From IMG/VR virus record IMGVR_UViG_3300020442_002661, positions 21,963-85,962 of that record: a DNA stretch of 64,000 nucleotides; one strand, written 5' to 3'. Position numbers and translations under genes: made by a program. Shown here piece by piece: positions 13,819-45,099 of the stretch. Source of the DNA: a virus. How positions within the stretch are numbered: position 1 is the stretch's first letter; every line of letters starts with the position of its first letter. The notes under the pieces were generated by a model, which worked only from the letters and a program-made list of their open reading frames with translations, was not told the DNA's origin and did no database searches.

Positions 13819-13819
13819 G

Positions 13820-15410: not shown

Positions 15411-15436
15411 AAAATCTATGGCAATTTGTTTAGGTA

Positions 15437-16069: not shown

Positions 16070-16102
16070 ATGTTTCTCCTGTTACAGTATTTATCAATTA
16101 AC

Positions 16103-16124
16103 GGACCCCATATTTCAGGGGTCC
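16103..16124 (-). terminator. Hairpin GGACCCC-N8-GGGGTCC between sheath and tube genes
   Basis: 7-bp GC stem directly upstream of GATAAATA (16088-16095); weak U tract. Confidence 0.5.
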
Positions 16125-16134
16125 ATTTAAACTA

Positions 16135-23635: not shown

Positions 23636-25107
23636 TGCAACATTTTTATGATGGACAAATAAGAAGATACGTTACTCAAATGGTAAGACTTATGAGTAAT
23701 TTCTCTGTAAAAGATGGTTCAGGTACATTAAAACAAGTTCCTGTTATGTATGGTGATTTAACTAGACAGGTTGCAAGTATTATACGAGATAATAGTGAAA
23801 ACAAAATACCTAGTGCTCCACGTATGGCAGTTTATATAAATTCATTAGAAATGGATAGGTCTAGAACAGCTGATGCAAGTTATGTTAGCAAAGTAAATAT
23901 CCGTGAACGTGCTTATGATGAAAACAACGAGGAATATCTAAATACACAAGGTAAAAATTATACTGTAGAACGACTTATGCCAACGCCTTACACCCTTGGC
24001 TTTACTGTTGATATATGGAGTTCAAACACAGATCAAAAATTACAGATTATGGAACAAATACTTACATTGTTCAATCCTAGTTTAGAAATACAAACAACAG
24101 ACAACTATATAGACTGGACAAGTTTAAGTGTTGTTAATATGGAAGGCATTACATTTAGTTCAAGAAGTATTCCTGTAGGTGTTGACAGTGACATTGATGT
24201 TGCTAACATGACATTTACAACACCTATCTATTTGTCACCTCCTATTAAGGTTAAGAGACTAGGTGTTATTACAAATATTATAACAAGTGTATTCAACGAA
24301 GATAAAGGTACAATAGATTTAAGTTTGAGTAGACCTGAATTAAAAGCATATGATGATAGTGTAATAGCTGGATCTAAACCTACAACAGATGGTAACACTG
24401 AAACTGTAAACGACAGTAACGCTATACCTGTTAACGTAAGTCATAAAAATTATGGTATTTACATCACAGGTACTATGGCGCAATTAGTTGCAAACAATAG
24501 AGTAGGTAGCACTAATTGGCGCAATGTAATTGATACTTACCCTGGTCAATATCAAGATGATATTAGCAGGTTGTACATAAGACGCAGTGACGAAAATAGA
24601 GATGTTACAGGAACAATTAGTTTAAATCCAAATGATGAAACACAATTAATGGTAAATTGGGATTTAGATTCATTCCCAAGTAATACTATAATAAATGGAC
24701 CTACTAGATTAAATGCACAATGGACAAGCATAGATTACATAATAGATCCATTAAAAACTAATCCTATTACAGAAAACATGCGTGGACTTGGATCTCGTAT
24801 ATTATTGTTAAATGATATAGGTGATGCTGATAACGGAAATGAAGGTCCATCAGCATGGGATGGTAATTTCCAAGGTACTGATCTTGTTGCAAGTAAAGAT
24901 GATATTGTTGAATGGGATGGTAATCAGTGGCGCATTGTATTTGATGCAAGTGAAAATAAATTAGTATACAACGATGAAGTTTTAACCACAGTATACACAA
25001 CTAACCTAAAAACAGGTATACAATATCGTTGGGATGGTTCAGATTGGCTATTAAGTGTTGAAGGACTCTATCCAAACGGTACCTGGCGTCTAAGCCTAAA
25101 CGGCTAA
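23635..25107 (+). CDS. gp15: Tail terminator/sheath stabilizer gp15-like with C-terminal extension
   Basis: HFYDGQIRRY, VPVMYG, PRMA, PTPY, QIMEQILTLFNPS. Confidence 0.85.
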   Translation: MQHFYDGQIRRYVTQMVRLMSNFSVKDGSGTLKQVPVMYGDLTRQVASIIRDNSENKIPSAPRMAVYINSLEMDRSRTADASYVSKVNIRERAYDENNEEYLNTQGKNYTVERLMPTPYTLGFTVDIWSSNTDQKLQIMEQILTLFNPSLEIQTTDNYIDWTSLSVVNMEGITFSSRSIPVGVDSDIDVANMTFTTPIYLSPPIKVKRLGVITNIITSVFNEDKGTIDLSLSRPELKAYDDSVIAGSKPTTDGNTETVNDSNAIPVNVSHKNYGIYITGTMAQLVANNRVGSTNWRNVIDTYPGQYQDDISRLYIRRSDENRDVTGTISLNPNDETQLMVNWDLDSFPSNTIINGPTRLNAQWTSIDYIIDPLKTNPITENMRGLGSRILLLNDIGDADNGNEGPSAWDGNFQGTDLVASKDDIVEWDGNQWRIVFDASENKLVYNDEVLTTVYTTNLKTGIQYRWDGSDWLLSVEGLYPNGTWRLSLNG

Positions 25108-25115
25108 TTATTTTT

Positions 25116-25556
25116 ATGGACAAGATTATTTGCAGTGGAACTCTCTTTTATAGCCTCTCGAGTAAACGTTATTTGTTACTTAGACGTTGTGAAGGTAGAA
25201 CTAAAGGTACATGGGGACTTGTAGGCGGAACAAACGAAACTACAGAAACTCCTTGGGAAGCATTGAAAAGAGAAATATCTGAAGAAATAGGAAAACTGCC
25301 TGATATTCAAAAAACAATTCCACTTGAAACTTTTATTAGTACAGATCAAAAATTTCATTTTCACACTTATCTTTGTACAGTTCAAGAAGAATTTATTCCA
25401 GTGTTAAACAAAGAACATGACGGGTATGCGTGGGTTACTTCAGGTGGTTGGCCAAAGCCTTTACACCAAGGTTTGCGTAATACACTTAATAGTAAAATTA
25501 ATCAAGAAAAATTAGAAACAGTAACAAAAGTTCTTGATTTAATGTCTCAAATGTAG
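25116..25556 (+). CDS. NUDIX hydrolase
   Basis: Nudix box GGTNETTETPWEALKREISEEIG; EHDGYAW. Confidence 0.9.
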   Translation: MDKIICSGTLFYSLSSKRYLLLRRCEGRTKGTWGLVGGTNETTETPWEALKREISEEIGKLPDIQKTIPLETFISTDQKFHFHTYLCTVQEEFIPVLNKEHDGYAWVTSGGWPKPLHQGLRNTLNSKINQEKLETVTKVLDLMSQM

Positions 25557-25562
25557 TATAGT
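25534..25562 (+). promoter_or_regulatory. Sigma70-type promoter TTGATT-17-TATAGT, 5 nt before the hldE ATG
   Basis: Near-consensus with 17-nt spacer; no SD. Confidence 0.6.
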
Positions 25563-25567
25563 AAATT

Positions 25568-26815
25568 ATGATAAGAGTATATGGCGATATAATGCTAGAC
25601 AGGTGGATTAAAGGAGTATCACAGCGTGTTAGTCCTGAAGCACCAGTCCTTGTGTTACAAGAAGAAGAACAAATATTCTGCCCAGGCGGAGCAGGTAATC
25701 TTGCATTAAATATTGCAAGTCTTAATGGTAGTGTAAATGTATATGGTAGTATTGCACCAGATAAAGAAGGTTATAGAATTATTGATTGCTTTGAAAAGCA
25801 TCCAAAAATTAATTTTGCCGCTACACTAGATAGTAAAATTACAACTACAAAAAATAGATTAGTAGGTCAAGGAGGGCAACATATTGTACGTTGGGATAGA
25901 GAAGAACTTTATACCGGCGACGAAGCATACGAAAGATGTATAACAGATATAACAACAAAAGACATTGTGGTTGTAAGTGACTATGCAAAGGGAACTGTAA
26001 AAGAAAAAACTGTTTGGAATTTTGCTAGACGCTGTAAAACACTAGTAGATCCTAAACAAGCCCCTGCATATTATCAAGGAGCATATCTTGTAAAACCTAA
26101 TATGAAAGAATATGAAGGTTGGTTCGGAACATTCAATAAACTAGATGCATTAGATCATATTAAAACTTACGAATGGACCTATCTTGTTGTTACAGATGGT
26201 GCAAACGGTATGCATGTGTTAAGCGATGATGGAAGATATGAACATATTCAAGAAGAAGCAAAAGAAGTAGCAGACGTTACTGGTGCTGGAGACACTGTAC
26301 TGGCTGTCATTGCATACTTTATTGAACAAGGTTTAGATATGTTTGATGCTTGTAGGAAAGCATGTTATGCCGCGGCAAGAGCTGTAGAACACAGAGGAGT
26401 TCATGTAGTTACACATAACGACCTAGAAAAAGTAGTTTTTACAAACGGTGTTTTTGATATCTTGCACAAAGGACATTTACACTTATTGAAAGAAGCACGT
26501 AGTTTAGGTAATAAACTGATTGTAGCAATTAATACAGACGCAAGTGTACAAAGATTAAAAGGAAACGGCCGTCCTATTAACGATGTTCAAACAAGACAAG
26601 CACAATTAGAAGTATTGCCTTGGGTAGATGAGGTCATTACATTTACAGATGATACGCCTTTAGAACTTATTAATAAAATTAAACCAGATTTAATTGTCAA
26701 GGGTGGCGATTATAAAGTTGAAGATGTTGTTGGCCATGAGATTGCAGATGTGCATATTGTGCCTATAATAGACGGATTGTCGACATCTAATATAGTAGAA
26801 AAAATTACAATATGA
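25568..26815 (+). CDS. hldE: Bifunctional heptose-7-phosphate kinase / heptose-1-phosphate adenylyltransferase
   Basis: GDIMLD, RVSPEAPV, GGAGN, SDYAKG, DVTGAGDT kinase domain; FTNGVFDILHKGH, RLKG..RP, KGGDY transferase domain. Confidence 0.95.
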   Translation: MIRVYGDIMLDRWIKGVSQRVSPEAPVLVLQEEEQIFCPGGAGNLALNIASLNGSVNVYGSIAPDKEGYRIIDCFEKHPKINFAATLDSKITTTKNRLVGQGGQHIVRWDREELYTGDEAYERCITDITTKDIVVVSDYAKGTVKEKTVWNFARRCKTLVDPKQAPAYYQGAYLVKPNMKEYEGWFGTFNKLDALDHIKTYEWTYLVVTDGANGMHVLSDDGRYEHIQEEAKEVADVTGAGDTVLAVIAYFIEQGLDMFDACRKACYAAARAVEHRGVHVVTHNDLEKVVFTNGVFDILHKGHLHLLKEARSLGNKLIVAINTDASVQRLKGNGRPINDVQTRQAQLEVLPWVDEVITFTDDTPLELINKIKPDLIVKGGDYKVEDVVGHEIADVHIVPIIDGLSTSNIVEKITI

Positions 26816-27636
26816 ACTTACTAATTACTGGCTCAAACGGATTTATAGGAAAAAATCTTGTAAATTATTTTGTTGATGAAGGACATACAGTTGCAGAATA
26901 TGATTACATAGAAAATGTAATTCCTGATTGTAGTCCTTTTGATCATGTTATTCATATGGGTGCTATTAGTTCTACAACAGAACGTAACGTAGAACAAGTC
27001 TTAACACAAAACTTAGATTTTAGTCATAGACTTTTACAAATTTGCGAAATGCAAGGAGTAAATTTAATTTATGCATCAAGTGCAAGCGTTTATGGAGATA
27101 CAGGCGTATTTAAAGAATATGGGCCCGTATATCCACAAAGTGCATATGCATGGAGCAAATACTTGTTTGACAGAACAATAAATCAAGTTGATAAAAAAGA
27201 TTGGATGTGCAACGTAAAAGGATTAAGATTCTTTAATGTTTACGGAGAGCATGAGGAAGATAAAGGTGATCAAATGAGTGTTTTTCATAAATTTAAAAAC
27301 CAAGCATTAGACACAGGAAAAGTTCATCCATTTGAAAATAGTAAAGAATATTTGAGAGATTTTATATATGTCGGCGATGTATGTAAAATTGTAGATAAGT
27401 TGTTAGATGTAGATGATAGTGGCATATACAATGTAGGTACAGGTACACCACGTAGTTTTCAAAGCATTGCAGAAGCAGTTGCAGAAAAATACAATGCAGA
27501 CATAGAACCAATACCTATGCCAGAAATACTTAAACAACAATATCAAAAATATACTTGTAGTGACAATACAAGACTACTTAAAGCAATAGGTAAATTTAAT
27601 TTTACAACACCGGAGGAATGGATATGCAAAGACTAG
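26812..27636 (+). CDS. hldD: ADP-L-glycero-D-manno-heptose 6-epimerase
   Basis: TGSNGFIG, HMGAISSTTE, YASSASVYG, YAWSK, RFFNVYG, RDFIYV, YQKYTC. Confidence 0.9.
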   Translation: MNLLITGSNGFIGKNLVNYFVDEGHTVAEYDYIENVIPDCSPFDHVIHMGAISSTTERNVEQVLTQNLDFSHRLLQICEMQGVNLIYASSASVYGDTGVFKEYGPVYPQSAYAWSKYLFDRTINQVDKKDWMCNVKGLRFFNVYGEHEEDKGDQMSVFHKFKNQALDTGKVHPFENSKEYLRDFIYVGDVCKIVDKLLDVDDSGIYNVGTGTPRSFQSIAEAVAEKYNADIEPIPMPEILKQQYQKYTCSDNTRLLKAIGKFNFTTPEEWICKD

Positions 27637-28046
27637 AAGGTAAAGTAGATAAAGGTTGGGGCTACGAAATAATTTGGGCCACAAATGAAAAATACTGTGG
27701 TAAAATACTTTTCTTTAACAAAAAAGGTTCAAAGTTTAGTATGCACTTTCATAGAGAAAAAGACGAAACATGGTTTGTTAACAACGGCAGTTTTGTTGTA
27801 CGCTGGATAGATACAAAAACAGCAACATTGTTTAGCCAAGTTCTTAAAGAAGGACAAACTTGGCATAATCCACCATTGCAACCACATCAATTAGAAGCAA
27901 TGGAAGATGGAAGCAGTATTACAGAAGTCAGCACAGCAGATAGTGTTGAAGACAACTACAGAGTAATTCCAGGTGATAGTCAATCGGAATTAACAACAAA
28001 AATTAAAGAGGTGGCAGATGCGCAGTCCAACGATAACGTGGAGTAA
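27624..28046 (+). CDS. Cupin-fold protein, sugar-isomerase-like
   Basis: KGWGYE, YCGKIL, FSMHFHREKDETW, PHQL, EVST, DNYR; GGAGG 7 nt before MQRL. Confidence 0.75.
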   Translation: MQRLEGKVDKGWGYEIIWATNEKYCGKILFFNKKGSKFSMHFHREKDETWFVNNGSFVVRWIDTKTATLFSQVLKEGQTWHNPPLQPHQLEAMEDGSSITEVSTADSVEDNYRVIPGDSQSELTTKIKEVADAQSNDNVE

Positions 28047-28653
28047 TGATGTAAACATTGATTTCTACAAACCAGATTATATTGCACCAAAGTGTGTTGT
28101 AGGTTTAGATAGAGATGGTGTTATTAATGTAGATATTGGAGATTACGTTTACAAAAAAAGTGACTGGAAATTTGAAGAGGGCAGTTTAGAAGCAATAGTA
28201 AAATTACGTAAATTAGGACACAAGATAGTTATTATAACTAATCAAGGCGGTATAGAAAAAGGTATCTACACACAAGAAGATGTAGAAAAATTACATGCAC
28301 ATATGTTTGAAGAATTTGGTAAGGCAGGTTGTCCTAGTATAGATGGATTGTACTACAGTGCATCAAGTGCAAAGAATGATATGTATGCAAAACCTAATAC
28401 AGGAATGTTTAAGCGTTGCGAAAAAGAAGTTCCTCATGTGAAATTTTCCCAAGGATATTATGTTGGTGATAGAATAAGAGATTTAAAGGCAGGATTAAAG
28501 ATGGGTGCGAAACCAATTCTAGTCCGAACTGGACATGGTAAAGAAACAGAAGAATTAATTAACAAAAGATTCACATATAAAAATATTAGGAAAGCAACAA
28601 AAGTATTTGATAACCTAGCCGCATTTGTTGATAGTTTAGATGATAATAGTTAG
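28018..28653 (+). CDS. gmhB: D-glycero-D-manno-heptose 1,7-bisphosphate phosphatase (HAD)
   Basis: LDRDGVIN, ITNQGGI, KPNTGM, VGDRIRD, LVRTGHG. Confidence 0.9.
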   Translation: MRSPTITWSNDVNIDFYKPDYIAPKCVVGLDRDGVINVDIGDYVYKKSDWKFEEGSLEAIVKLRKLGHKIVIITNQGGIEKGIYTQEDVEKLHAHMFEEFGKAGCPSIDGLYYSASSAKNDMYAKPNTGMFKRCEKEVPHVKFSQGYYVGDRIRDLKAGLKMGAKPILVRTGHGKETEELINKRFTYKNIRKATKVFDNLAAFVDSLDDNS

Positions 28654-29200
28654 AGACGATTACATTCCACAACATATACAAGATTATTTACATACAGCAG
28701 TATTTGGTACTGAAGAAATAAATGCTATGTTGCCCTTAACTGCAAAAGTAGAGCCCACAGCATATGATGGCGAAAATCCTTTGCCTGTTAGTTTTCAACA
28801 TGTGTTTATGAGTAGTACAAGTCACACAGAATGGTTTGGAAATTTTAGTAAAATACCACAAATAGTATGTAAGAAAATGGAAGTAGAGCTAATAGATATT
28901 ATTGCCGCAAGACTTTTTATAACTGTTCCGCACAAAACTAAATTAGAACATTATGCACCGCACACAGATAGACCAGAACCTCATCTTGGCTTAATTTATT
29001 ATGTAAACGATAGCGACGGAGACACACTTTTCTTTGACGATCCTAGTTTAGAAAACAATTGGAAACCAGAGATTATAGAAAGAGTAAGTCCAAAAAAAGG
29101 ACGTATTGTCTTGTTTGATGGTAGTCATTTACATGCAGGTGGATATCCTACTGATGTGCCTCGCTGTATTGTAAATTACAACATTAGAGCTGAACGTTAA
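28640..29200 (+). CDS. 2OG-Fe(II) oxygenase
   Basis: PHTD, IYYVNDSDGDT, PKKGRIVLFDG..H, distal Arg. Confidence 0.8.
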   Translation: MIIVRDDYIPQHIQDYLHTAVFGTEEINAMLPLTAKVEPTAYDGENPLPVSFQHVFMSSTSHTEWFGNFSKIPQIVCKKMEVELIDIIAARLFITVPHKTKLEHYAPHTDRPEPHLGLIYYVNDSDGDTLFFDDPSLENNWKPEIIERVSPKKGRIVLFDGSHLHAGGYPTDVPRCIVNYNIRAER

Positions 29201-32200
29201 GCCTGTGCTTCACCCCATCTTAGAATTAAATTAGCATTTACATCTGAACCTGCTGTTTTATAAACATTAATTGCAAGAACGTCAGGTCCATTCGGGAATG
29301 TTCCTCTACCACCTAGTGTAGTATTAGTTAATTCTTTCAATTCACCAAGATCGATAGCGGCACGTTCTCCTGGTTGTGCAATAAATGATAGCACAGTTTC
29401 ACCTGGTTGTCCGTATGCTGGTGCACTAAATTCTAGTGTAATTGTTCCACTTCCTTGTGTAAGTGTACCTTGGCTGGCATTGTTAAAGTCAACTTCATAA
29501 TATTCGGTTCCTGCAAAGTCAACTAATTTAACATTGTTAATAATTGTGTTTGCAGGCCAACTTGGACTTGCACTTGTACTAGATACTGGTGTGCCGTTAG
29601 TTGCTCCGCTTGCTTCCCAACTTGACTTTGTTATAAATGCATAAGGTACGTTAGAGATATCAGCATGTGATTGAATTGTAAACGCATTTGCTGTATTTGC
29701 ATTAATATTACCTGTTAAGGATTGTGAAAAGAAGAAATATCCATAGTTACTACTTGGCGAAATATATCCGCCTGTAATTGTTGTACCCGCTGGCAATCTG
29801 TTACTTACAACAACTTTACCTAGCACAGGATCAATATTATCAGTGCCAAATGTAGATCTATAATCAGTTCCGCTTACATATGCAAAACTGTTACCATTCC
29901 TTGATCTACTTTGACCACTGTCTAGTATTGCATTTACAGTTGCTTGAGCAGTTAAGTTTGTAGTTGTTGTTGTAGCACCTGTAGACCACTGAATACCTGA
30001 ACCCGAAGCTACTTGGGCAAAGCTAGGTTGTCCACCTTGAGCAAGTGTGCTTAGACCTGTCCATGTTATCAATCCAGGGTTAACTGGATAGTTTTGAGGG
30101 TTAAGAATTCCTTCTACAACAATAGCACCTGTAGCGTTTGCTTCTGATGTAACTTCTAATCCTTGAAGTAATAATTGCGCTCTATTTAGAAGCTCTCTAT
30201 CACCTAAATCTCCCGGTATAGCATTAGAAACACTAGGTGCAAGTCTAATCATAAATGCAGTTTGTCTTGCATTTGTAACTGTTACACCTTGTTCAGTGTA
30301 ACTAAAGATATAACCTCTATCTTCATCGAACCCACCATCTGTTAAGAATGCTGATCCCCAATGTGATATAAGTGGTGTTGTAGTTTGACTTACAAGCACA
30401 ACACCTGTTCTTGCAGTATGGCTAGTAGCCCCTCCAGCTGTGTATGTTCTTGAAGCACCTGCTTGGAAGTTTGTTAAATTAGCACTTCTTGTACAGCCTG
30501 TAAGTTCATTAGTTGTACTATTTGTTGATGTATAACTAATAAGCTCGTTGTCTATATATACTGTACCTGCTGTTGGTAAGAAACTTACGCTTTCTACTGG
30601 AATAGTTGTTACAGCATCATCAATATCTGATTGTAATTTTGTATTTTGTCCTTCGTTAGTGACTTCGTAACGCACAGGCAAGTTTCCTGAACGCATAAAT
30701 GCTTCAGTGTTTACGTTTGAATTTCTAATTCTGTGTGCATATACAAATTCACCATTTGCTCCACGTACCATGTAGTCAATAAAACCAGCACCATACCATG
30801 AATACTCAATTCCAATCATCTGCATTTTGCTGTAAACAAAGTTATAACCACTTGGTCCAGTTCCGTCTAAACCATCTCTATTAAATTCACTTTGCTTAAC
30901 TTTTGTGTCGCTTATCAAACATACTTTTGTACCAGATGCAGTGTTAACACCTCTATAGTCTGGAGTAACAGTCATTGTTGTTTGGTCAGCAATATTTGTT
31001 ACAACGTGTGTCATTCCGCGGATAACAATTCTATCTCCTGCTTTTAATTGATCTCTGAACCTTGTGTTTACACCTGTTATACTATTACTGTCCGGATTAG
31101 CAGTTACCGTTCCTGCAATCTGTTTAGTTGCTGTTCTTAGACAAGCATATAAGTTGGTACCATCATATTCCCAATAGATACCATTTTGATCATCAAACAC
31201 TCCTGAACGAACAGTTGCACCATGCCATTTAAAGGTACTCATCTGTGCACCAAAACTTAATGTACCTGTAGTGCCACCTAATCTTTGATTTGATGTTACT
31301 TCAAAAGTTCTTTCGTCTGTAATGTCACTTACAGTGTATGTACCATCATATCCTTCAGTTTCAACACCGATAATTTGTATCTGTGCACCAATCTGTAGTC
31401 CATGATCATTATCATCTGTTGTAACAGTGATAGTTGAACCAATTTCAATACCGTCTGATGATATGCTACGTAAATCATAACTCGGTGCAAATAGTGCACC
31501 TGTTGTATACATAATACCTTTACCTGATTGATATCTAATATATTTTTTACTTTGACGTATTGCCTGTGCACCATGTTGTGGTCCGCCTGTACCTAATTGA
31601 ACACCACCGTCAAATGGTCTATGTATAAAGAACGAATCAGGTCTTGGATAAACAGTTCCTAGAATTGTATCAGTAGTTGTATCAATAGCACCTGCGGCTC
31701 TGGCTGTGAACGTTAATTGATTTAATTGTGGTACTGATGTAACTAAGAATGATCCTGCCGCTAATTTATGGTTATTTGTACCACCATCTTCTGTATCATC
31801 TGAATCAATACCTGTTATAAATGTATCACCAGGAACCAGTCCATGATTATTAGTAAATGTAATTAATAAAGTTGCTAATGCACTGAAACTAATATCTAGT
31901 GTAGTTGCAAGTTCTCCAGTTGATACTGCATCCATTGTAAATGTACTGTATAAATCTAAACTATCACCTGCATAAGCATCACCTTCGTGTGAAATAGTAA
32001 TAATGCCACCCATTGAATCTACACTATCTACAGTGATTGTCATGTCATTAGTTACTGTTGTACCGCCTAAGAATCCGCCATCAATTTTAATTTTATTTCC
32101 TGCCGCATAATCTTGGCCTGGAGAATTTAAAGATACTGTATATGTACCAACAGTTGAATCAGCTGTTGTTCCATCTCTTAGAATGTTAAAGTTACCACCA

Positions 32201-36624: not shown

Positions 36625-36626
36625 TA

Positions 36627-37550
36627 CTAAATTCCTAGTGCTACTGCTAATGCTGTCGCAGTATTATCTGTATATACTTTGTTACTTATCTGATTTTTTG
36701 TAGTTGGTTGTGCTAACACGGATGCTTCGCTGAATGTTGCTGTGCTAGGTTCTGTCCCGCCAATTATAGTATTATCAATAGTTGTATCAATTACTCTTAA
36801 TGTGCTACCATCTAAGCCAATAGTGCCTTTTGTAATTGAATCAATCTTAAATTCTATAGCGTTGCCAGCTGATAACACAATATTTGTACCTGCATTCATT
36901 TCAGCAACACCTAATCCATCAATATTTAAACTGTTTGCAGTAAGTGTACCTTCAACTTCAAAAGTTCCTGTAACTGTACCGTTACCATTAAGTGTCAATT
37001 CAGTTGCTGTAAGAGCTTGTACAGTTGATGCTCCTGTCACTGTCAAATCAGAAGCAGTAATATTAACTGCAATAGGGTCTTCTACATTAATTGTACCTTT
37101 TGGATCATAATCTGCATCACCATAATATAGTAAGTCGGGTGCAGTTCCAGGTACTTCAATAGTAAATGTACCACTTGTTTTAGCTTGAGCCGCCGCTCCT
37201 GTTGATATAGTATCATCGTCTGCTTGGTGTTGGATACCTGTATTATACAGTACATTAGAACCGTCAAAAAGATTAAAACTACCAGCACTAATATCTAACG
37301 AGAAAGAATAAGTTGTACCTCTTCTTAGTGTTAATGTTGGATTATCTCCTGCATCTACAATAACTGTATTACTGGTAATTCTAAAATTACCACCTGTAGT
37401 CGTAACGCTGTAGTCACCTGTTTGGGTTCCGCCACCGCCAGCACCAGCGGCATTGATAGAAGTTGCTGTGATGTTTCCTAGTGCATCAACAGTAAATCCT
37501 GGGCTCTTAAAACCAAACTCTGATTCAAACGGTCTTTGGGTGACTGCCAT
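36627..37550 (-). CDS. Virion structural protein
   Basis: NPTLTLRRGTTYSF..APDLLYY domain; ends in ALAVALGI; late promoter at 37571-37578. Confidence 0.7.
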   Translation of the reverse strand: MAVTQRPFESEFGFKSPGFTVDALGNITATSINAAGAGGGGTQTGDYSVTTTGGNFRITSNTVIVDAGDNPTLTLRRGTTYSFSLDISAGSFNLFDGSNVLYNTGIQHQADDDTISTGAAAQAKTSGTFTIEVPGTAPDLLYYGDADYDPKGTINVEDPIAVNITASDLTVTGASTVQALTATELTLNGNGTVTGTFEVEGTLTANSLNIDGLGVAEMNAGTNIVLSAGNAIEFKIDSITKGTIGLDGSTLRVIDTTIDNTIIGGTEPSTATFSEASVLAQPTTKNQISNKVYTDNTATALAVALGI

Positions 37551-37588
37551 ATAATGTCTCCAATTTTATATATTTATCCGTATGCAAT

Positions 37589-37981
37589 TTAGGTATGACT
37601 TCTAAAATATGATGCTGAAAAGAACGCTTTTGCACCTTTTTCAGAGTCGGTTTTTGGATTTAATATAAGCTCTACATAAGAATTTGTTACTTGTGCAGTA
37701 ACACTTACTAAATCAGTTGTAGTGCTTGCCCTACCATATACAACAACTGTTGCTTCATTTGGAGATGCTGTCAATAAACACTTGATTACTTCCTTTTTAT
37801 CTCGCCCTAATTCAATGTTAATTGTATATTCTGCACTTGCAAAATCGCCCATATGCCATCTGTCTATAGCAAGATTACTATATACTTCTTGCCAACGTCC
37901 TTCATAAGAGAATTGTGCACCATTTGCTAGTGCTACAGTTTTCCTTAAACCTTTTCTAAAATACTTGGATAAATCTATCAT
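37589..37981 (-). CDS. Small virion/fibre-associated protein
   Basis: SAEYTI..E..YG beta domain; late promoter at 38000-38007. Confidence 0.6.
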   Translation of the reverse strand: MIDLSKYFRKGLRKTVALANGAQFSYEGRWQEVYSNLAIDRWHMGDFASAEYTINIELGRDKKEVIKCLLTASPNEATVVVYGRASTTTDLVSVTAQVTNSYVELILNPKTDSEKGAKAFFSASYFRSHT

Positions 37982-38018
37982 TACAAACTCACTTTAATAT
38001 ATTTATCGGAGTTTGTAA
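37981..38018 (-). promoter_or_regulatory. 10-bp hairpin covering the start region, with late promoter in the loop
   Basis: TTACAAACTC-cGATAAATAtattaaagt-GAGTTTGTAA(TG). Confidence 0.7.
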
Positions 38019-38024
38019 AAACAC

Positions 38025-39830
38025 TTAGGTGTTTTTTACAGTGATTAATTTGCCGTATTCAGGTAGATACAAGTACTCAATTTCACTATTTTGCAAGGTC
38101 CAAATAGCATCTTCAAGTTTTTCTACTAGAGGATCACCACCTAAATTAAAACTTGTATTGAATATAATAGGTAATCCTGTCTTTTCTTTGAATACTTTTA
38201 TAAGATCATAGTAATGCGGATTCTGTTCATGTGTTACTGTTTGAATACGACAAGTGCCATCTACATGTATAATACTAGGAATTTTTTCTGCTATTCCTTC
38301 TTGACAGTTGACAGCATACATCATATGCGGACTGTCGTCCATTCCACGTAGATCGAACCATTCATGCACATCTTCTTGTAGTATAGATCCTGCAAATGGA
38401 CGGAAATATTCTCTACGTTTTACTTTGTTAACATAATCTTTGCCATCTTCAAAACTAGGATCAAATAAAATACTTCTATTACCTAATGCTCTTGGACCGT
38501 TCTCGCTTTGGCCTTGGAAAATAGTTACAATATTCTTTTTTGTAAGCAATTCTACAACTTCTTCATGTGTAGAATCTTTCATTTCAACATCATCTGCACT
38601 AGTAAGCTCTTGTAATTGATCTTCAGTGTATGAATATTTTGGTCCTAAATATAATGTTTGTGTTTGACGCTTTTCAGTTTCGTCTTCTAGCCCATACCAA
38701 AACATCATTGCGGCACCCATTGCAGTACCAGCATCATTTGACACAGGCTCTACATACATTTCAATTCCTTTTTCACGTAACGTTTCTAAGTAATAATAGT
38801 TTGCAACACAATTTAATCCATATCCGCCACTCACTACTACTTTTTTCTTGCCTGTCATTTCGACTGCTTTTAGTATAAGATCTAAAACTTTTTCTTGTGT
38901 TTGTGTTTGCACAGCATATGCAATGTCTCTTCTACTTTGCAATAGAGTAACATCTTCTCCTTGGCGTGCAGGTTCTTTTAATTCATCGTATAAACCAGCG
39001 TTTATAAATGCGCCATTTGGATAATTTGGTACAACAATATTTCTATTTGTTAAAGGATACACTGCACCTTCTTCAAATAATTTTGGAAATTTATCATTTG
39101 GTTTACCATATGGAAACAAGCCCATTGTTTTTCCTGCTTCAATACTTGACCAACCGCAGTACATAGTTGCCGCTTCATATGCCTTTACAATTCCTGCTCT
39201 GTCATGTACAACTGCTGAGTGTGTTTTTCCATTTTCACCAAACATACTACTATCCATTTGAATAGCGGCACCTGTTACAGGTTCTCTTGTTCCATAAACT
39301 TTGTGTAGTGTAGAAAAGTTTGCAGGATATTCGCAATCAATAATACTTTCTGTTTCCCATGTCATGACTTGTTCTTCATTGATAGACAAAGGAATAAAAG
39401 TTCCTGCGCCATCAACAATAACACTTACTGCACTATCAAATCCTGAACGATAAAATGCACATGCACTATGAAGTTTGTGGTGCATAAATGCTAAATCTAT
39501 TACTTGTGGATGTTCGTATGTAGTAGAGTTAGACTTTTGATCTATCAATCCTAATTTTCTAGCAAGTCCTGTGTACACATCATCACCACTATAGTCAACT
39601 CTACCAGCAGTATCTCTCAATGATTGAGTATGTGCAACTACAAGATAATCTAACTTATCTGTATACTCTAAAATTTTGACCATACTTGCAAATGGTCCAC
39701 CGTCATATTTTTGTCTGCTTAATCTTTCTTCTTCAATAGAAAATATTACTTCTCCATCTTTAAGCAAGCATACGCCAGCATTGTGTCCTCTTGCAATACC
39801 TGCTATCCAAACTGGTTTTTTATCGCTCAT
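38025..39830 (-). CDS. Carbamoyltransferase (NodU/CmcH/TobZ family)
   Basis: EEERLSRQK, HHKLH, VDGAG, GKTMGL, GGYGLNCVAN, DAGTAMG, GPRALGNRS, FRPFA, HVDGTCRIQTV, NTSFN. Confidence 0.95.
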   Translation of the reverse strand: MSDKKPVWIAGIARGHNAGVCLLKDGEVIFSIEEERLSRQKYDGGPFASMVKILEYTDKLDYLVVAHTQSLRDTAGRVDYSGDDVYTGLARKLGLIDQKSNSTTYEHPQVIDLAFMHHKLHSACAFYRSGFDSAVSVIVDGAGTFIPLSINEEQVMTWETESIIDCEYPANFSTLHKVYGTREPVTGAAIQMDSSMFGENGKTHSAVVHDRAGIVKAYEAATMYCGWSSIEAGKTMGLFPYGKPNDKFPKLFEEGAVYPLTNRNIVVPNYPNGAFINAGLYDELKEPARQGEDVTLLQSRRDIAYAVQTQTQEKVLDLILKAVEMTGKKKVVVSGGYGLNCVANYYYLETLREKGIEMYVEPVSNDAGTAMGAAMMFWYGLEDETEKRQTQTLYLGPKYSYTEDQLQELTSADDVEMKDSTHEEVVELLTKKNIVTIFQGQSENGPRALGNRSILFDPSFEDGKDYVNKVKRREYFRPFAGSILQEDVHEWFDLRGMDDSPHMMYAVNCQEGIAEKIPSIIHVDGTCRIQTVTHEQNPHYYDLIKVFKEKTGLPIIFNTSFNLGGDPLVEKLEDAIWTLQNSEIEYLYLPEYGKLITVKNT

Positions 39831-40697
39831 TTAAAATCCTCTGTAATAATTACCCCAACCTTTAAGTTGTTTTCCTATACTATCAACAAAATAATCAAAA
39901 TCACCGTGTGTGCTAGTATAGCAGTTGTTTACTATATCTATCCATTTTTCTACTTGTTCAGGAGTATTCTGGCTTATATTTAATTTTGGTTTAACAACAT
40001 AATTCACGTAATCTGCATGTTGATTAATAGTAGGATGCCTATCTATATTAGGAGTAACACTATTTCTTATAATAAATTTGTATGGTTTTTCTGTATGTGT
40101 CCATGCAAAAACTCCAATAGGTTTTAACCATCTATCATTAAATATTTTATCTTTGTATTGTTTCAATTTAGGAATATCTTTCCATACATCTATTTTATTT
40201 GTGCTTTCTCCTTCACCGTTTCCGTCTTGAGGATAGTCACTATTCATTTTATTAATATACCCCATGCTTGTCATGTAATAATTAACACCAATACCTTCTA
40301 GAAACTTTTGTGTAAGCAGTATGTTATTAAGCGTATGCATCATATAACTATGTTCATCGAAAAAAGTTTTTATCCACTTTTCGTCATACAAATTTGCATT
40401 TATAAAATTAAAAATACTGCCAGATGTTTTCCAACCAACACCTGGTTGTGTATCATGACGCTGATCAAGTGTGTGCCAGTCATGTCTTAGATGACTTGTC
40501 CATTGTATTATTACTGTATCTTCTGGTGTTAATGTTTCTGATGCATGTAAATTAGCAACACGTTCTGCGATAGCTCTGTTGCCTAGTCCAGGATAAGCCC
40601 AATTTTCGTATGTGTCAAACTCACAACCTAGTATATCAGCCCAAGTAGGCCAAGCATAGTTTGTAAAAGAACACCCTAGTGCATAAAAACGTTTCAT
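39831..40697 (-). CDS. Hypothetical SGNH-like protein
   Basis: LGCSFT, GLGN, IQWT and DRHP motifs. Confidence 0.6.
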   Translation of the reverse strand: MKRFYALGCSFTNYAWPTWADILGCEFDTYENWAYPGLGNRAIAERVANLHASETLTPEDTVIIQWTSHLRHDWHTLDQRHDTQPGVGWKTSGSIFNFINANLYDEKWIKTFFDEHSYMMHTLNNILLTQKFLEGIGVNYYMTSMGYINKMNSDYPQDGNGEGESTNKIDVWKDIPKLKQYKDKIFNDRWLKPIGVFAWTHTEKPYKFIIRNSVTPNIDRHPTINQHADYVNYVVKPKLNISQNTPEQVEKWIDIVNNCYTSTHGDFDYFVDSIGKQLKGWGNYYRGF

Positions 40698-41641
40698 TAT
40701 TCTGCGTCTGGATCATTTTCTCTTTTGATAACGCCAACAATATATTCACGCAGATTATCATCCATTTGCATTATACCTTCGTTAGCTCTATTAACAGTTT
40801 CGTCAACTGTAATTCTAATAGGATCGTATTGTCTATCTTTCATTCCCATGTCTACAATTTTTAATTTTTCTTGTCCTGGATATGATATGTTAATCGGAAA
40901 AGTAGATCCAACAACAACAGTAGTTTCTGTATCAACAGCATATGACAAATGTTGTCCAACACTATCACAACCTAAGAAATGATCTGCGGCTTTGATTACA
41001 CTTGTCCACTGCCTTAATCCTAGCCCCTCTGGCATAGCAACTTCGTTTTTCAATCCTTCACCTTTGAGCTCCATTTTCAATTCGCTCATCATAATAATTC
41101 CGTAATCTTTTTCTATAAGTTTTAATAACCTTTTTACATCAGCCCATTCAAAACTTCTTCCTGTTGAGTCCATAGGTGTTTCATTAATAATTTCTACACC
41201 TCTACCAAAAGGTTGGAATACTAATACTTTATCTTTTTTTAATTTTTGTTTTACTTCGTCAACTATTTGACGTCCTACAAGTATTTCATTATGACTTAAT
41301 TTTACAAAAGGTTTATCTAAATCTCTGACTCCTTTTTCATTAAGTAGAATATCAAATGCTTGTGATAAATTACATTTTTGATTATAGTATTCCCATACTT
41401 GATATGGTTCTGGGTTTACTACTTGCCTATGTTTTATTTCGCTTTCAAAAAGATTTTTATGCCAAGGATCGTATGCACGTTTATGTAGTGTAGGATGACC
41501 TTTAAACATATCTGTGCCACCTTCACATACGATAATAAAATCTTTATCTCCTGATTCTTCTTCATATTTTTCTAGTGCAGGAATAGAACACAGCATACGC
41601 CCAGCGCCGCCATTTAGAAAAAATGCCTTCGATCTTGTCAT
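40697..41641 (-). CDS. GT9 (ADP-heptose heptosyltransferase)-like glycosyltransferase
   Basis: GGAGRMLCSIPAL N-terminus, VFQPFG, IKAADHFLGCDSVGQHLSYA (compare the GT9 DSGPxHLAxA motif). Confidence 0.7.
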   Translation of the reverse strand: MTRSKAFFLNGGAGRMLCSIPALEKYEEESGDKDFIIVCEGGTDMFKGHPTLHKRAYDPWHKNLFESEIKHRQVVNPEPYQVWEYYNQKCNLSQAFDILLNEKGVRDLDKPFVKLSHNEILVGRQIVDEVKQKLKKDKVLVFQPFGRGVEIINETPMDSTGRSFEWADVKRLLKLIEKDYGIIMMSELKMELKGEGLKNEVAMPEGLGLRQWTSVIKAADHFLGCDSVGQHLSYAVDTETTVVVGSTFPINISYPGQEKLKIVDMGMKDRQYDPIRITVDETVNRANEGIMQMDDNLREYIVGVIKRENDPDAE

Positions 41642-41664
41642 ATTATAATTACTCCATTAAAAAA

Positions 41665-41710
41665 GGTCGGACTCAACATTATATATTAAAGTATAGTGTT
41701 AAGTCCGACC
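41665..41710 (-). terminator. Long imperfect hairpin followed by T6, upstream of the GT9 SD
   Basis: GGTCGGACT/AGTCCGACC outer arms extended by AACACTATA/TATAATGTT. Confidence 0.6.
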
Positions 41711-41739
41711 CAAATTGGATAGAGAATTTTTTTTAAATT

Positions 41740-42444
41740 TTATGCTTCGCCTGCATCTGGTGGATTAGGATCATCCCAATCTGGAAGTGTTTCTTCTGAG
41801 AAAGGCCATTTCCAGTGATTAACATTAGCGTATTTACGTGGTGCATCATCTAACCAATCTGCATGGTTAGTAAGTGTAGTTCTTTCATCGTCTGTGAAAG
41901 TTTGGTTTGTGTCCGCTAAAGCACGTCTAATCGCATCTGATTGTCCCTCTAAACTGTCAAGAACACTTTGTCTTGAGTTATTGTGTTCTCTAAATTGAGG
42001 TTCTCTCCATGTGTCTGTTTCATGCGTGTATAGTAAACTGTCTTGGTAGTAAATGTGTGCCAACATACCTGTTGTACCTTCGTACACATGATTCCAAGTC
42101 CATTTATTACCGTCTGCATCAGTACATTCTTCTGTATAATCAGCGACATCTGGGTGTGTATACTCATCTGTCATAAATGCGGCGTAACGAGCTTTGTCGT
42201 CACTTTCCCATGCATCTAGCAATACATAATCGTAATCGTCTTGTTCGTATCCTGCTGGATCTAATGCTGGATCTGTTTTTTCATCTCCACGTCCCGCTTC
42301 GCGACACTGATTGTCATCTTTGTCCACTTGGACTAAGATATAACGAGGTCCAATATAGGTACACTCGAAAGTGTTACCATCCTCAGTCGTAGTATGATAC
42401 GGCTGATCGGGGTAGGTAACTGTAAATGTTTTTGTTTTAGCCAT
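41740..42444 (-). CDS. Acidic protein, possible fibre assembly chaperone
   Basis: C-terminal WLDDAPRKY..WKWPF resembles tail-assembly chaperone ends; follows adhesin-like genes. Confidence 0.45.
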   Translation of the reverse strand: MAKTKTFTVTYPDQPYHTTTEDGNTFECTYIGPRYILVQVDKDDNQCREAGRGDEKTDPALDPAGYEQDDYDYVLLDAWESDDKARYAAFMTDEYTHPDVADYTEECTDADGNKWTWNHVYEGTTGMLAHIYYQDSLLYTHETDTWREPQFREHNNSRQSVLDSLEGQSDAIRRALADTNQTFTDDERTTLTNHADWLDDAPRKYANVNHWKWPFSEETLPDWDDPNPPDAGEA

Positions 42445-42458
42445 TCTCTATCTCCGTT

Positions 42459-43415
42459 TTAGCTTTCTATATATTTAATTCGAACGATGCTATCACCACC
42501 GGCCCATCCATTATCTCTAACACCTGAACATGGTGTAGCCGCTGGACCACCTGATCCGTGTGGTACAAACATCGAACACCCTTGTGTTTGGTAACAACCA
42601 CAATGTCTATTACCGTCCCAACATTCAGTCCAATGACTTCCTGTGCCTGGCATTCTAGACAAACTATTTAGTGCGTTAATATAGCCTTGTATAGCCATTC
42701 CGGACCAATCTGATTGTCCATTGTCTGAGTCTAATGAATATGTTGCTACGCCACCGCACTCACTAAACATGCCTGGTGGTAATGCTGTATGGTGTTGTGT
42801 TGAACAGTTACAATTTGGATAGCAGTGCCAAAAAGTTACACAACTATATACTGTATCTCTGTTTACGTCTCCGCCGTAAGCATTTGCTTGCCAACTGTTA
42901 GCACATCTGTTACAAATGATACCGCAGTATCCGTTATACCTAGTTGAGCACCAGTTATTTGCTGAAAAACAGCACCAACGAGCTGTACCAGTTGTACACC
43001 AACTTGCACCACTCCATCCGCCTTCTGCACAAATACATCCATTGTTTCCTGAATTTCCTTGCCAGCATACTCTACCTGCTTCTGAACAACCTCTGTGACA
43101 TAAACTACCGTTACGACAACTCTTACCTGCATAACCACAAATCCAACATGTAGCCGCTACGTTAATTGTTTTCTTTGCATATGCACCAGAATTACCTGAA
43201 ATTGTTGCAGAACAACAGCACATTCTTGAAGCCGATCCGCCAGCGCCGATAACTTCTAATTCTACAGTTGCACTGCCCGGTGATATCCAACAAAAACATC
43301 CTGGGTATGTTGAGTAAGTTGCAACTTGTGAGTAGGACCAAATTTTTCCTTTTTCCAAGTTCTCCTCAACGCTGGCTGGACTTCTGCTCTGTAATAATGA
43401 TCTTAATCCTGCCAT
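42459..43415 (-). CDS. Cys-rich, glycine-rich adhesin-like protein (30 Cys in 318 aa by hand count)
   Basis: EVIGAGGS..CCC..GNSGAYAKK and GGDSIVRIKY glycine-rich-domain frame. Confidence 0.6.
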   Translation of the reverse strand: MAGLRSLLQSRSPASVEENLEKGKIWSYSQVATYSTYPGCFCWISPGSATVELEVIGAGGSASRMCCCSATISGNSGAYAKKTINVAATCWICGYAGKSCRNGSLCHRGCSEAGRVCWQGNSGNNGCICAEGGWSGASWCTTGTARWCCFSANNWCSTRYNGYCGIICNRCANSWQANAYGGDVNRDTVYSCVTFWHCYPNCNCSTQHHTALPPGMFSECGGVATYSLDSDNGQSDWSGMAIQGYINALNSLSRMPGTGSHWTECWDGNRHCGCYQTQGCSMFVPHGSGGPAATPCSGVRDNGWAGGDSIVRIKYIES

Positions 43416-43417
43416 GT

Positions 43418-44374
43418 TTAACTCTCCACAAACTTAATTCTAATTGCGCCCATTCCACCTCTAACAGCATGATCTCTCACGCCTGGGCAAGGCTGAGGTC
43501 CTGGTCCGCCAACTCCGTATGGTAACATACTTTGACAACCGTTAGTGTGATAACAACCACAACTTGTGTCGTTTCTAAAACAACCTTTCCATTGTGTACC
43601 CATTCCTGGGGATTTTCCTGTACCGTTAATTGCGGCTAATGCACTGCCCCAACCCATACCCGACCAATTCGAGTGAGCTGAATCACTATCCATTCCGTAA
43701 CCAACAACGCCTCCACATTCTGCAATCATGCCTGGAGGAAATGCAACAAAGCCTCTAAATAAACAAATACATGATGGGCGGCAACCATGGAAGCCCATAC
43801 ATGAAATGTTTCCGCATCTGTTTACGTCTCCGCCATATGCAATAGCGTCCCATTGTCCTGTACATTGATTACAAATTGTACCACAGTTTGGTCCTGTATT
43901 TGTATGACAGAAACCGCCTGCTCTAAAACAACAGTACATACTTGATCCGGTTGAACAATAACTTACTCCGCCTTTACCGCCTCTTGCACACATACAACCG
44001 TTTGTTGATGAGCTAAACCAGCAAAGCATAGTAGGTTCTGAACAACCTCTAAAGCATAATGCGTCTGAATTTCCACAAGCAAAACCTACACAACCGTATA
44101 TGTAGTTGCTTGTTCCCATTGTAATTGTTCTTTTACTGTAAGAACCGGAGTTACCTGGTAAACCATTACCACAACAGCACATTTTAGCACCAGAACCACC
44201 AGCACCCCACATTTCAATTGTCACTGTTCCTGTGGCAGTTGGACACCAACAAATACATTTACAAAACTTAGTATATGTATTGCCCTCCGCAAAGCTATAG
44301 ACTCTTCCAGTTTCTAGGTTATCTTCACCTTTACTCGGAACCTTAGCTTTAATTAGTGTTTCTAATGATGCCAT
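43418..44374 (-). CDS. Cys-rich, glycine-rich adhesin-like paralog (32 Cys in 318 aa by hand count)
   Basis: EMWGAGGSG..CCC..GNSGSYSKR and GGMGAIRIKF. Confidence 0.6.
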   Translation of the reverse strand: MASLETLIKAKVPSKGEDNLETGRVYSFAEGNTYTKFCKCICWCPTATGTVTIEMWGAGGSGAKMCCCGNGLPGNSGSYSKRTITMGTSNYIYGCVGFACGNSDALCFRGCSEPTMLCWFSSSTNGCMCARGGKGGVSYCSTGSSMYCCFRAGGFCHTNTGPNCGTICNQCTGQWDAIAYGGDVNRCGNISCMGFHGCRPSCICLFRGFVAFPPGMIAECGGVVGYGMDSDSAHSNWSGMGWGSALAAINGTGKSPGMGTQWKGCFRNDTSCGCYHTNGCQSMLPYGVGGPGPQPCPGVRDHAVRGGMGAIRIKFVES

Positions 44375-44405
44375 TTACTTCTCCTGTTATGACAGTATAA
44401 AAAAA

Positions 44406-44738: not shown

Positions 44739-44763
44739 GGTTTTATCCTTCTCCTATATGTAT

Positions 44764-45084: not shown

Positions 45085-45099
45085 TTTTTACTTCTCCAT

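Follow-up and report, generated by a model that had tools for sequence, protein, structure and literature searches.

We analyzed a 64,000-nucleotide stretch of viral DNA (the window), which comprises bases 21963-85962 of the 85,962-bp IMG/VR viral contig G000 (record IMGVR_UViG_3300020442_002661; CheckV completeness 24%), and focused on two sets of sugar-related genes that lie on either side of a giant fiber-like structural gene. One set is a run of ADP-heptose genes on the + strand, and the other is an enzyme trio on the - strand, within the tail fiber block, that encodes a GT9-like glycosyltransferase, an SGNH-like protein, and an O-carbamoyltransferase (Table 1). We tentatively read these genes as a module that makes a modified sugar.

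The gp15 homologue has its nearest relatives in jumbo phages, where alignments spanning 99-100% of the query give 32-33% identity to Phosso, Atu_ph07, and PA5oct; the related contig G069 is CheckV complete at 364 kb; a search of G000, G069, G042, G014, and G071 turned up no psbA-type gene; and the stretch is present in marine or seawater metagenome runs from several studies. We therefore conclude that the source is a marine T4-superfamily phage. It is not a classical cyanophage, its fiber block is common to cyanomyoviruses, and its genome is probably very large (jumbo). Megablast of positions 25000-45000 against the phage collection returned no match.

Table 1. Positions of the features discussed, with the evidence for each assignment (aa, amino acids; 2OG, 2-oxoglutarate; pLDDT, predicted local distance difference test; pI, isoelectric point; dNMP, deoxynucleoside monophosphate).
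Feature	Position	Strand	Length	Evidence
NodU/TobZ-type O-carbamoyltransferase	38025-39830	-	601 aa	Carbam_trans_C 7.2e-58, Carbam_trans_N 8.5e-25
SGNH/GDSL-fold esterase or acyltransferase-like protein	39831-40697	-	288 aa	AlphaFold2 (AF2) model, pLDDT 91.5; Foldseek
GT9-fold glycosyltransferase-like protein	40697-41641	-	314 aa	AF2/Foldseek; phrog_8954 3.8e-140
HldE-like heptose-7-phosphate kinase/heptose-1-phosphate adenylyltransferase	25568-26815	+	415 aa	PfkB 2.5e-24, CTP_transf_like 2e-20
HldD-like ADP-heptose 6-epimerase, shortened	26812-27636	+	274 aa	Epimerase 1.5e-34
Small cupin	27618-28046	+		Cupin_1, Cupin_2; 39-41% identity to cyanophage T4-GC 307
GmhB-like heptose-1,7-bisphosphate phosphatase (HAD-IIIA)	28018-28653	+		NF006506, HAD-type Pfam matches
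2OG-Fe(II) oxygenase, last gene of the heptose operon	28640-29200	+		2OG-FeII_Oxy_3 7e-07
Two tandem Cys/Gly-rich paralogues, P0003/P0004	42459-43415, 43418-44374	-	318 aa each	30 and 32 Cys (about 10%); phrog_4205
Acidic protein	41740-42444	-	234 aa	phrog_9740 6.3e-08; pI 4.24
Terminator-like hairpin + U6, between the 234-aa gene and the GT9-like start codon	41659-41711	-		15-bp stem
Two small fiber-associated proteins	44406-45084	-	110 and 106 aa	PHROG tail/tail-fiber families
Tail fiber protein	45100-51093	-	1997 aa	homologous to P-SSM2, S-CAM1, and S-SSM7 tail fiber proteins
Giant fiber-like structural protein, between the two enzyme sets	29197-36624	-	2475 aa	32-40% identity to S-CAM1 'virion structural protein'
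gp15	23635-25107	+	490 aa	PF16724 (profile length 245) matches residues 3-224 only
NUDIX gene	25116-25556	+		
Second hairpin, before a 130-aa gene	37982-38024	-		
Cytidylyltransferase-like/cupin fusion	340-1113	-	257 aa	mannose-6-phosphate-isomerase-type cupin
Two methyltransferase-domain genes	1743-3668	-		
dNMP kinase, then two tandem 2OG oxygenase paralogues	19770-21633	-		PF21448; 2OG-FeII_Oxy_5, homologous to P-SSM2 oxygenases

Enzyme genes on the two strands

An initial annotation of this DNA had placed a GT9-like transferase, an SGNH-like protein, and a carbamoyltransferase at 38.0-41.6 kb, and the domain searches, AF2 models, and Foldseek comparisons bear this out (38025-41641, - strand). 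Judged from its sequence, the carbamoyltransferase is a secure member of the NodU/TobZ type, with 88.3 bits against a cut-off of 24 for the Kae1-like Carbam_trans_N domain, 195.3 against 27 for the YrdC-like Carbam_trans_C domain, a match to phrog_1601 at 5.4e-170, and the PDB relatives GdmN, NovN, and TobZ at E values of 1e-42 to 1e-59; it scores below the NodU equivalog (137.7 versus 1000). The SGNH-like protein has no Pfam or PDB sequence match, and the top Foldseek matches of its model were rhamnogalacturonan acetylesterase, TesA, and PatB (E 5e-5 to 1e-3), the first two with a probability of 1.0 and template modeling (TM) scores of only 0.28-0.40. Residues S10, G37, G39, N40, and H221 are invariant in 56 sequences, and an Asp is found at position H-2 as opposed to the usual H-3. 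Because the predicted nucleophile is residue 10, the protein probably carries no signal peptide.

Neither single-sequence nor profile searches of PDB sequences produced a meaningful match to the GT9-like or the SGNH-like protein, and the GT9-like protein matched TIGR02201 at an E value of 0.0012 over residues 204-248 only. Its homologues number 4523 metagenomic proteins at E ≤0.001, some of which carry PF01075 or the JGI name 'ADP-heptose:LPS (lipopolysaccharide) heptosyltransferase'. When an AF2 model built on 45 sequences (pLDDT 88.1) was compared with solved structures, Foldseek ranks 1-25 were all GT9 enzymes, including Veillonella 3tov, TibC (4rap/4rb4), WaaF (1psw), and WaaC (2gt1/2h1h/6dfe), with E values of 1e-9 to 7.5e-8 and TM scores of 0.49-0.66. 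The modeled transferase has a two-Rossmann GT-B fold closest to these solved GT9 enzymes.

The residues invariant across the same 45 sequences are G14 and R15, at the turn between strand 1 and helix 1, together with D226, S227, G229, and H231, which fall inside the sole stretch that matches GT9 models at the sequence-profile level and may correspond to the C-terminal D-(S/T)-x-G-x-H donor-site motif of GT9 enzymes. An hhalign comparison with Escherichia coli WaaC weakly places R15 (GAGR) on Asp13 (SMGD; E 0.012, probability 3.65), the latter presumably being the catalytic base of WaaC. With rough domain cuts, the net charge of the N-terminal, acceptor-side domain has a median of +1 (range -3 to +4, n=45), compared to +8 and +5 for E. 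coli WaaC and WaaF. Compared with cyanophages, which have different backbones, the GT9-like protein of this non-cyanophage contig retains 45-55% identity. Distant homologues (about 24% identity) also turned up in 29 records of Vibrio phages, about 78 kb in size, and in a single Aeromonas phage.

The + strand carries a tightly packed run of a 387-aa open reading frame (ORF), gp15 (the tail sheath stabilizer), the NUDIX gene, and the HldE-like, HldD-like, cupin, GmhB-like, and 2OG-Fe(II) oxygenase genes; the heptose operon points the same way as the neck genes and follows them at close spacing. The genes first annotated as hldE, hldD, and gmhB (25568-28653, + strand) were recovered with heptose-pathway models as their best NCBIfam matches, namely NF008454 for HldE (352 bits against an equivalog cut-off of 521), TIGR02197 for the ADP-glyceromanno-heptose 6-epimerase (241.1 against 274.6), and NF006506 for GmhB (136.8 against 178). 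Given that these best matches all belong to the heptose pathway yet remain below the equivalog cut-offs, we regard the three proteins as divergent members of their families. The HldE-like protein is 37% identical to Salmonella RfaE, and the HldD-like protein has an N-terminal GSNGFIG motif and 39-41% identity to T4-GC 308 of P-SSM2, S-SSM7, and S-CAM1.

ORFs overlap or abut on both strands, and the cupin and the 2OG oxygenase genes do so with the heptose genes; searches of these two proteins against the PDB returned generic matches (an oxalate decarboxylase cupin) or none. The oxygenase is a variable member, with a homologue within 10 kb in 0 of the 80 related loci described below, and 2OG oxygenases also occur within the P-SSM2 and S-SSM7 cassettes. 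We found no SIS-type GmhA (PF13580/SIS_2) in G000 (24% complete), G069 (complete), G014, G012, or G044. In line with the earlier proposal that the phage makes its own ADP-heptose, the sequences suggest a near-complete ADP-heptose route in which a conserved cupin stands where a SIS-type GmhA would be. The cupin, whose homologue in contig G042 weakly matches mannose-6-phosphate isomerase and lyxose isomerase, is a candidate stand-in for the GmhA isomerase. The NUDIX gene was considered as a pathway member and rejected because it stays beside gp15 in heptose-less relatives (L022, L023, L027, and L054) and in PA5oct-type phages; a NUDIX gene likewise follows gp15 in related jumbo phages.

Conservation of the gene arrangement in related phages

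A GT9-like relative is encoded at 578 confirmed IMG/VR loci, and the best 80 of these (56-85% identity, with up to 10 kb of flank) formed the comparison set, against which the window proteins were searched by tblastn (E ≤1e-5). In all 80 loci the carbamoyltransferase gene lies directly downstream of the GT9-like gene on the same strand, and it is always the next catalytic gene; in 28 loci the SGNH-like gene lies between the two. Because this arrangement recurs in every one of the related loci, it is more than a chance neighborhood. The proposed tie to fiber genes also held, since a homologue of the 1997-aa fiber lies within 10 kb in 76/80 loci; homologues of the 2475-aa giant protein were found in 73, of the 110/106-aa small proteins in 67, and of the 234-aa protein, 0.8-1.0 kb upstream of the GT9-like gene, in 64.

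We then screened for Cys/Gly-rich proteins by composition (≥6% Cys, ≥10% Gly, 180-450 aa), using + strand ORFs with an ATG start in the first screen and rechecking both strands for the 13 matchless loci and for L039 and L071. Arrays of one to three such ORFs lie within 10 kb of the GT9-like gene in 72/80 loci, beside it on the same strand in 67 and on the opposite strand, 5-9 kb off, in 5 more; in the remaining 8 the contig end falls on the side expected to hold the array. In the whole of contig G000, only 2 of the 66 ORFs of at least 150 aa pass the screen. Aligned together, the Cys/Gly-rich proteins from all three sources (window, IMG/VR loci, and cyanophages) form one family (alignment A3) with conserved Cys residues and a WGAGGSG...CCC motif, and one neighbor cluster in the ESM Atlas carries the name 'Gly_rich_2', on 47% of its members. 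A tblastn search of P0004 against the phage collection gave no match, probably due to low-complexity filtering. When the family profile was searched against 11 complete Kyanoviridae genomes, each of the three GT9 carriers yielded 2-3 full-length matches (E 1e-51 to 1e-66), while seven of the eight non-carriers yielded none and Syn9 two weak partial ones; the non-carriers S-SM2, P-TIM68, and S-T4 possess heptose genes yet no strong match to the family. Collectively, these findings indicate that the GT9-like/carbamoyltransferase pair is inseparable and strictly associated with the Cys/Gly-rich family, even across strand rearrangements. The two paralogues of the window, P0003 and P0004, are candidate fiber-tip proteins and candidate acceptors. 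The initial annotation had the enzymes following immediately on two Cys-rich adhesin-like genes; such a pair is indeed nearby, but the 234-aa ORF and a hairpin intervene.

The heptose genes are distributed differently from the pair. Searching the 80 source contigs, many of which are short, with the HldE of the window, we observed a strong match in 34, a match cut by the contig end in one (G075), a weak match to the nucleotidyltransferase part only in 6, and none in 39. Among the 12 contigs that are at least 40% complete, 6 have a strong HldE-like match, and one of the two complete carrier genomes is without ADP-heptose genes. Of the 34 contigs with a strong match, 33 have it downstream of the GT9-like gene at a distance of 2.5-16.3 kb (median 12.8 kb), and in the other the distance is 95 kb. 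In P-SSM2, S-CAM1, S-SSM7, and L046 the heptose genes follow the carbamoyltransferase gene, between fiber genes, and all 11 distinct isolate or single-virus records with a GT9-like gene also appear in the HldE match list. The co-occurrence and synteny anticipated for the whole set are thus complete for the GT9-like and carbamoyltransferase genes and nearly so for the placement of HldE, but not for its presence; the independent distribution that had been named as evidence against a shared system is seen in part, in that the heptose genes are accessory while their placement is not independent. Given that they are accessory in distribution yet positionally tied, we consider the heptose and GT9 sets linked but not obligatorily coupled.

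The six weak matches (G013, G016, G051, G052, G067, and G078) were rejected as HldE, being ORFs of 257-282 aa that resemble the nucleotidyltransferase-cupin fusion near the start of the window. ORFs of about 260 aa like this fusion recur in many related contigs, and in the window, where the ORFs at 340-4455 were checked, it appears to belong, with the two methyltransferase-domain ORFs, to a second sugar cluster. The complete contig G042 has the order three Cys-rich genes, 234-aa-like ORF, GT9-like gene, carbamoyltransferase, cupin, neck, gp15, terminase, and sheath genes, with three cytidylyltransferase-like domains elsewhere in the genome.

Along the - strand of the window, three very large fiber proteins, two small fiber-associated ORFs, the two Cys-rich paralogues, and the 234-aa ORF precede a hairpin, which is followed by the three abutting enzyme genes, two small ORFs, and the 2475-aa fiber-like protein, for which no Pfam family was found. 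The 1997-aa fiber carries seven CBM_5_12 repeats (chitin/carbohydrate-binding module 5/12; 2.3e-39), a sequence feature which hints that the fiber binds polysaccharide, and the 110/106-aa proteins are 41-48% identical to the P-SSM2 and S-CAM1 ORFs that follow the tail fiber gene. The hairpin upstream of the GT9-like gene has a minimum free energy of -31.5 kcal/mol (z -8.47; 0/200 shuffles fold as well). The second hairpin, whose loop contains GATAAATA, is alike in design, and both are possible attenuators or promoter-in-loop elements. Sigma-70-like and terminator-like scans of the window stayed at chance level, and the exact T4 late-promoter octamer TATAAATA has 2 matches in the window versus 8.6 expected, which makes it unusable for expression timing; the phage may not widely use the canonical T4 late promoter. 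RNA-library contigs of one study are 90-95% alike to the window, and therefore come from a relative; they mainly cover 43830-45088, with pieces of about 90-165 nt elsewhere, and indicate neither transcription nor its level, nor are uncovered bins evidence.

Candidate product and acceptor

We tentatively favor, at somewhat less than even confidence, a reading in which the module makes a modified sugar and decorates virion or fiber-tip proteins of the phage with carbamoyl-heptose. The cupin would supply the first step, from sedoheptulose-7-phosphate to heptose-7-phosphate, and the GT9-like enzyme would transfer heptose from ADP-heptose in the cytoplasm; the carbamoyltransferase would then O-carbamoylate the transferred heptose, as proposed for WapO on heptose II (HepII) of Pseudomonas LPS, and the SGNH enzyme would add or remove an acyl group. 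The acceptor would be a fiber-tip protein, most likely the Cys/Gly-rich paralogues, modified prior to assembly, and the ADP-heptose pathway would be carried by those phages whose hosts do not supply ADP-heptose. A more specific form of the proposal, which we hold with less confidence, is that a widespread group of ocean T4-like and jumbo phages places O-carbamoyl-heptose on Cys/Gly-rich, receptor-binding fiber tips through a phage-only, Asp-to-Arg offshoot of GT9, with their own pathway, in which a cupin replaces GmhA, where the host makes none. The Asp-to-Arg swap may mean that the acceptor atom is unusual, for example that of a Cys thiol or of a carboxylate.

The main rival is remodeling of the host envelope, in which carbamoyl-heptose would be placed on the host LPS core or another envelope glycan during a long latent period, thereby blocking superinfection or keeping progeny off lysed cells, with the position among fiber genes reflecting a plastic 'host recognition cluster'; we consider this rather unlikely. 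Its structural basis is that the closest structures to the GT9-like enzyme include the LPS heptosyltransferases WaaC and WaaF and that all enzymes of the module, like those of the LPS core, are cytoplasmic, but the acceptor domain is not basic as in WaaC and WaaF and an Arg occupies the position of WaaC Asp13. A Pseudomonas precedent exists, in that HepII bears a carbamoyl group for which the putative carbamoyltransferase WapO is held responsible (PMC8005017), and published readings lean the same way (PMC7029224, and the 'LPS genes' of PMC3037559); however, a review describes cyanobacterial LPS cores as having neither keto-deoxyoctulosonate (Kdo) nor heptose (PMC4390846), so that the standard acceptor would be missing in the cyanobacterial hosts of close relatives. 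The absence of heptose genes from some carriers fits a donor supplied by the host, yet what the pair strictly accompanies is a family of phage proteins and not any type of host, and the heptose genes, where the window has them, run in the same direction as the neck genes and close behind. An LPS acceptor is thus disfavored because phages with different backbones share the GT9-like enzyme at 45-55% identity, because of the heptose-free cores described in PMC4390846, and because of the near-neutral N-terminal domain. A phage-encoded, fiber-associated acceptor is favored because the pair is strictly linked to a fast-evolving, structural-looking Cys/Gly family and because of the position of the heptose operon behind the neck genes.

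Another possibility, which we regard as unlikely, is that the product is a soluble or lipid-linked heptose small molecule, or that the GT9-like protein uses another donor or none and the heptose genes serve other transferases. The solved carbamoyltransferase relatives GdmN, NovN, and TobZ tailor natural products, the GT9-like protein scores below family thresholds and is without the Asp, and complete G042 has the GT9-carbamoyltransferase-cupin series with no HldE-like gene, while heptose genes elsewhere occur without a GT9-like gene. The S-SSM7 cassette is natural-product-like in flavor, with a tryptophan halogenase, a second carbamoyltransferase, 2OG oxygenases, and a methyltransferase-domain gene; however, neither the window nor most loci conserve the halogenase and the other genes of natural-product type. 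The position inside fiber gene blocks in 76/80 loci, the co-occurrence with the structural-looking Cys/Gly family, and the positional linkage of HldE in 33/34 contigs also weigh against this reading. In S-SSM7 (L004), the second carbamoyltransferase, a 2OG oxygenase, denV, and the halogenase lie at 13390-16998, between the carbamoyltransferase and the heptose genes.

DNA hypermodification, in which heptose, possibly carbamoylated, would be placed on a modified base against restriction, appears very improbable. Phage clusters that put heptose and Kdo on 5-hydroxymethylcytosine (5hmC) have been reconstituted (bioRxiv 10.1101/2023.12.21.572611), the window has a dNMP kinase and several 2OG oxygenases in the vicinity, and G042 has a TET/JBP gene. 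However, no ThyA/dCMP-hydroxymethylase family member was found in G042, G000, G069 (complete), G014, or G012 and no TET/JBP gene in the last four, the TET gene of G042 is about 45 kb from its GT9-like gene, and the 2OG oxygenases of the window are of the Oxy_3 and Oxy_5 types, not TET. The fold is that of GT9, with no T4 beta-glucosyltransferase among the Foldseek matches listed, the protein is acidic (pI 5.45), and the heptose donor enzymes and glycosyltransferase described in the preprint (10.1101/2023.12.21.572611) are of different types. The TET/JBP-family oxygenase of G042 (the contig of L048) is a 463-aa ORF at about 140.1-140.5 kb (E 4.6e-25), and the G042 phage may therefore modify its DNA by a separate route.

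Several observations weigh against decoration of the virion. The GT9-like protein has no Pfam match at E ≤0.01, a six-frame search with PF01075 reached 15.6 bits against a cut-off of 22, and the sequence alignment suggests an invariant Arg at the WaaC Asp position; because of the subthreshold score and this Arg, the donor and chemistry are uncertain. The solved relatives of the carbamoyltransferase all act on small molecules, no protein-glycan case having surfaced, and a strong terminator-like hairpin parts the enzyme trio from the structural genes. There is no HldE-like gene in G042 (complete, 160 kb), G071 (60%), G070 (45%), or G058 (40%), and some cyanophages have heptose genes without a GT9-like gene. 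The 80 loci are mutually related, so their counts are not independent events, and the profile A3 included sequences of the three positive genomes in a small sample of related genomes; the linkage could reflect co-transfer of a cassette as opposed to an enzyme-substrate relation. No virion of this kind has been observed to carry a sugar, the virion proteomes described in the text of PMC3037559 are those of S-SM1, S-PM2, and Syn9, none of them a carrier, and in print such genes are taken to modify the host surface (PMC7029224).

Cyanophage genomes published from 2005-2010 onward already contain these genes, labeled as 'LPS genes' or as hypothetical proteins, and the isolates P-SSM2, S-CAM1, and S-SSM7 carry the module. 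If the genes do decorate fiber tips, abundant ocean phages would recognize their hosts through a sugar modification in addition to the protein sequence, with consequences for host-range prediction, for the 'auxiliary metabolic genes' of viromes, for GT9 enzymology, and for a possible cupin-type heptose isomerase. In the more specific form of the proposal, this would also be, to our knowledge, the first heptosylated virion known, and the host range of marine phages would be subject to a further level of control.

Relation to known systems

The closest known relative is the cyanomyovirus T4-GC 302-308 set (P-SSM2 PSSM2_307-313, S-SSM7 SSSM7_120-133, and S-CAM1 SXBG_00216-00222), a run of a GT9-like gene (302), a carbamoyltransferase (303), a split nucleotidyltransferase (304) and kinase (305), a cupin (307), and an epimerase (308). 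By tblastn, the GT9-like proteins are 45-55% identical, the carbamoyltransferases 48-64%, the cupins 39-41%, and the epimerases 39-41%, and the kinase and nucleotidyltransferase are homologous; like the genes of the window, this set is flanked by tail-fiber genes and preceded by Cys/Gly-rich paralogues. In contrast, the window has a jumbo, non-cyanophage backbone, an HldE fused in the bacterial domain order, a GmhB, an SGNH-fold gene between the transferase and the carbamoyltransferase, and heptose genes that neighbor gp15 and NUDIX on the opposite strand, at a distance of 15 kb. T4-GC 306 ('phosphoheptose isomerase') has no homologue in the window, and its P-SSM2 version is without a Pfam family. 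Sullivan 2010 (PMC3037559) lists T4-GC 304, 305, 307, and 308 as co-occurring 'LPS genes' and leaves unclear whether they are functional, and Zaragoza-Solas 2020 (PMC7029224) describes glycosyltransferases and rfaE in a pelagimyophage 'host recognition cluster' and reads them as host O-chain modifiers; both favor or leave open a change of the host surface over virion decoration. Our literature search, without subscription journals and supplements, found no heptosylated phage virion and no function for T4-GC 302/303.

Among bacterial systems, the Pseudomonas core oligosaccharide cluster encodes heptosyltransferases and the putative carbamoyltransferase WapO, and HepII carries a carbamoyl group (PMC8005017). 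The module shares with WaaC/WaaF and WapO the closest GT-B fold, an ADP-heptose context, and the proposed heptose plus O-carbamoyl chemistry, but, unlike WaaC/WaaF, its transferase falls below PF01075, has Arg at Asp13 and a near-neutral N-terminal domain, and is encoded among phage fiber genes. TibC is among the top Foldseek matches (E 1.7e-9), and the idea of heptose on an adhesin in the cytoplasm is shared with TibC/AAH; the Foldseek similarity equals that to WaaC/WaaF, and there is no sequence-level match. TibC has an iron-binding site, forms a dodecamer, and acts on autotransporter passenger domains. Unlike the beta-helix repeat acceptors of TibC/AAH, the proposed acceptors of the window are Cys/Gly-rich.

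Phage-encoded sugar modification has also been described for mycobacteriophages, whose glycosyltransferases are suggested to glycosylate a capsid protein (Maravista; PMC11256854). The enzymes are likewise phage-encoded, and the enzyme families, sugars, and hosts differ from those considered here. We know of no heptose, carbamoyl group, or self-encoded donor pathway in the mycobacteriophage system. The 5hmC-glycan clusters, which can lie near structural genes (10.1101/2023.12.21.572611), similarly combine phage-encoded sugar activation with a GT-B transferase; unlike the window, they need 5hmC-forming enzymes and use T4 beta-GT-like transferases and different donor enzymes.

Given that the gene set and its linkage to fiber genes already appear in PMC3037559 and PMC7029224, neither is new, and the module is a member of a gene set found in published genomes, here on a new phage backbone with a split layout. 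What is new here is the invariant GT9-like/carbamoyltransferase pair, its strict association with the Cys/Gly family, and ADP-heptose genes that are accessory yet positionally linked to it.

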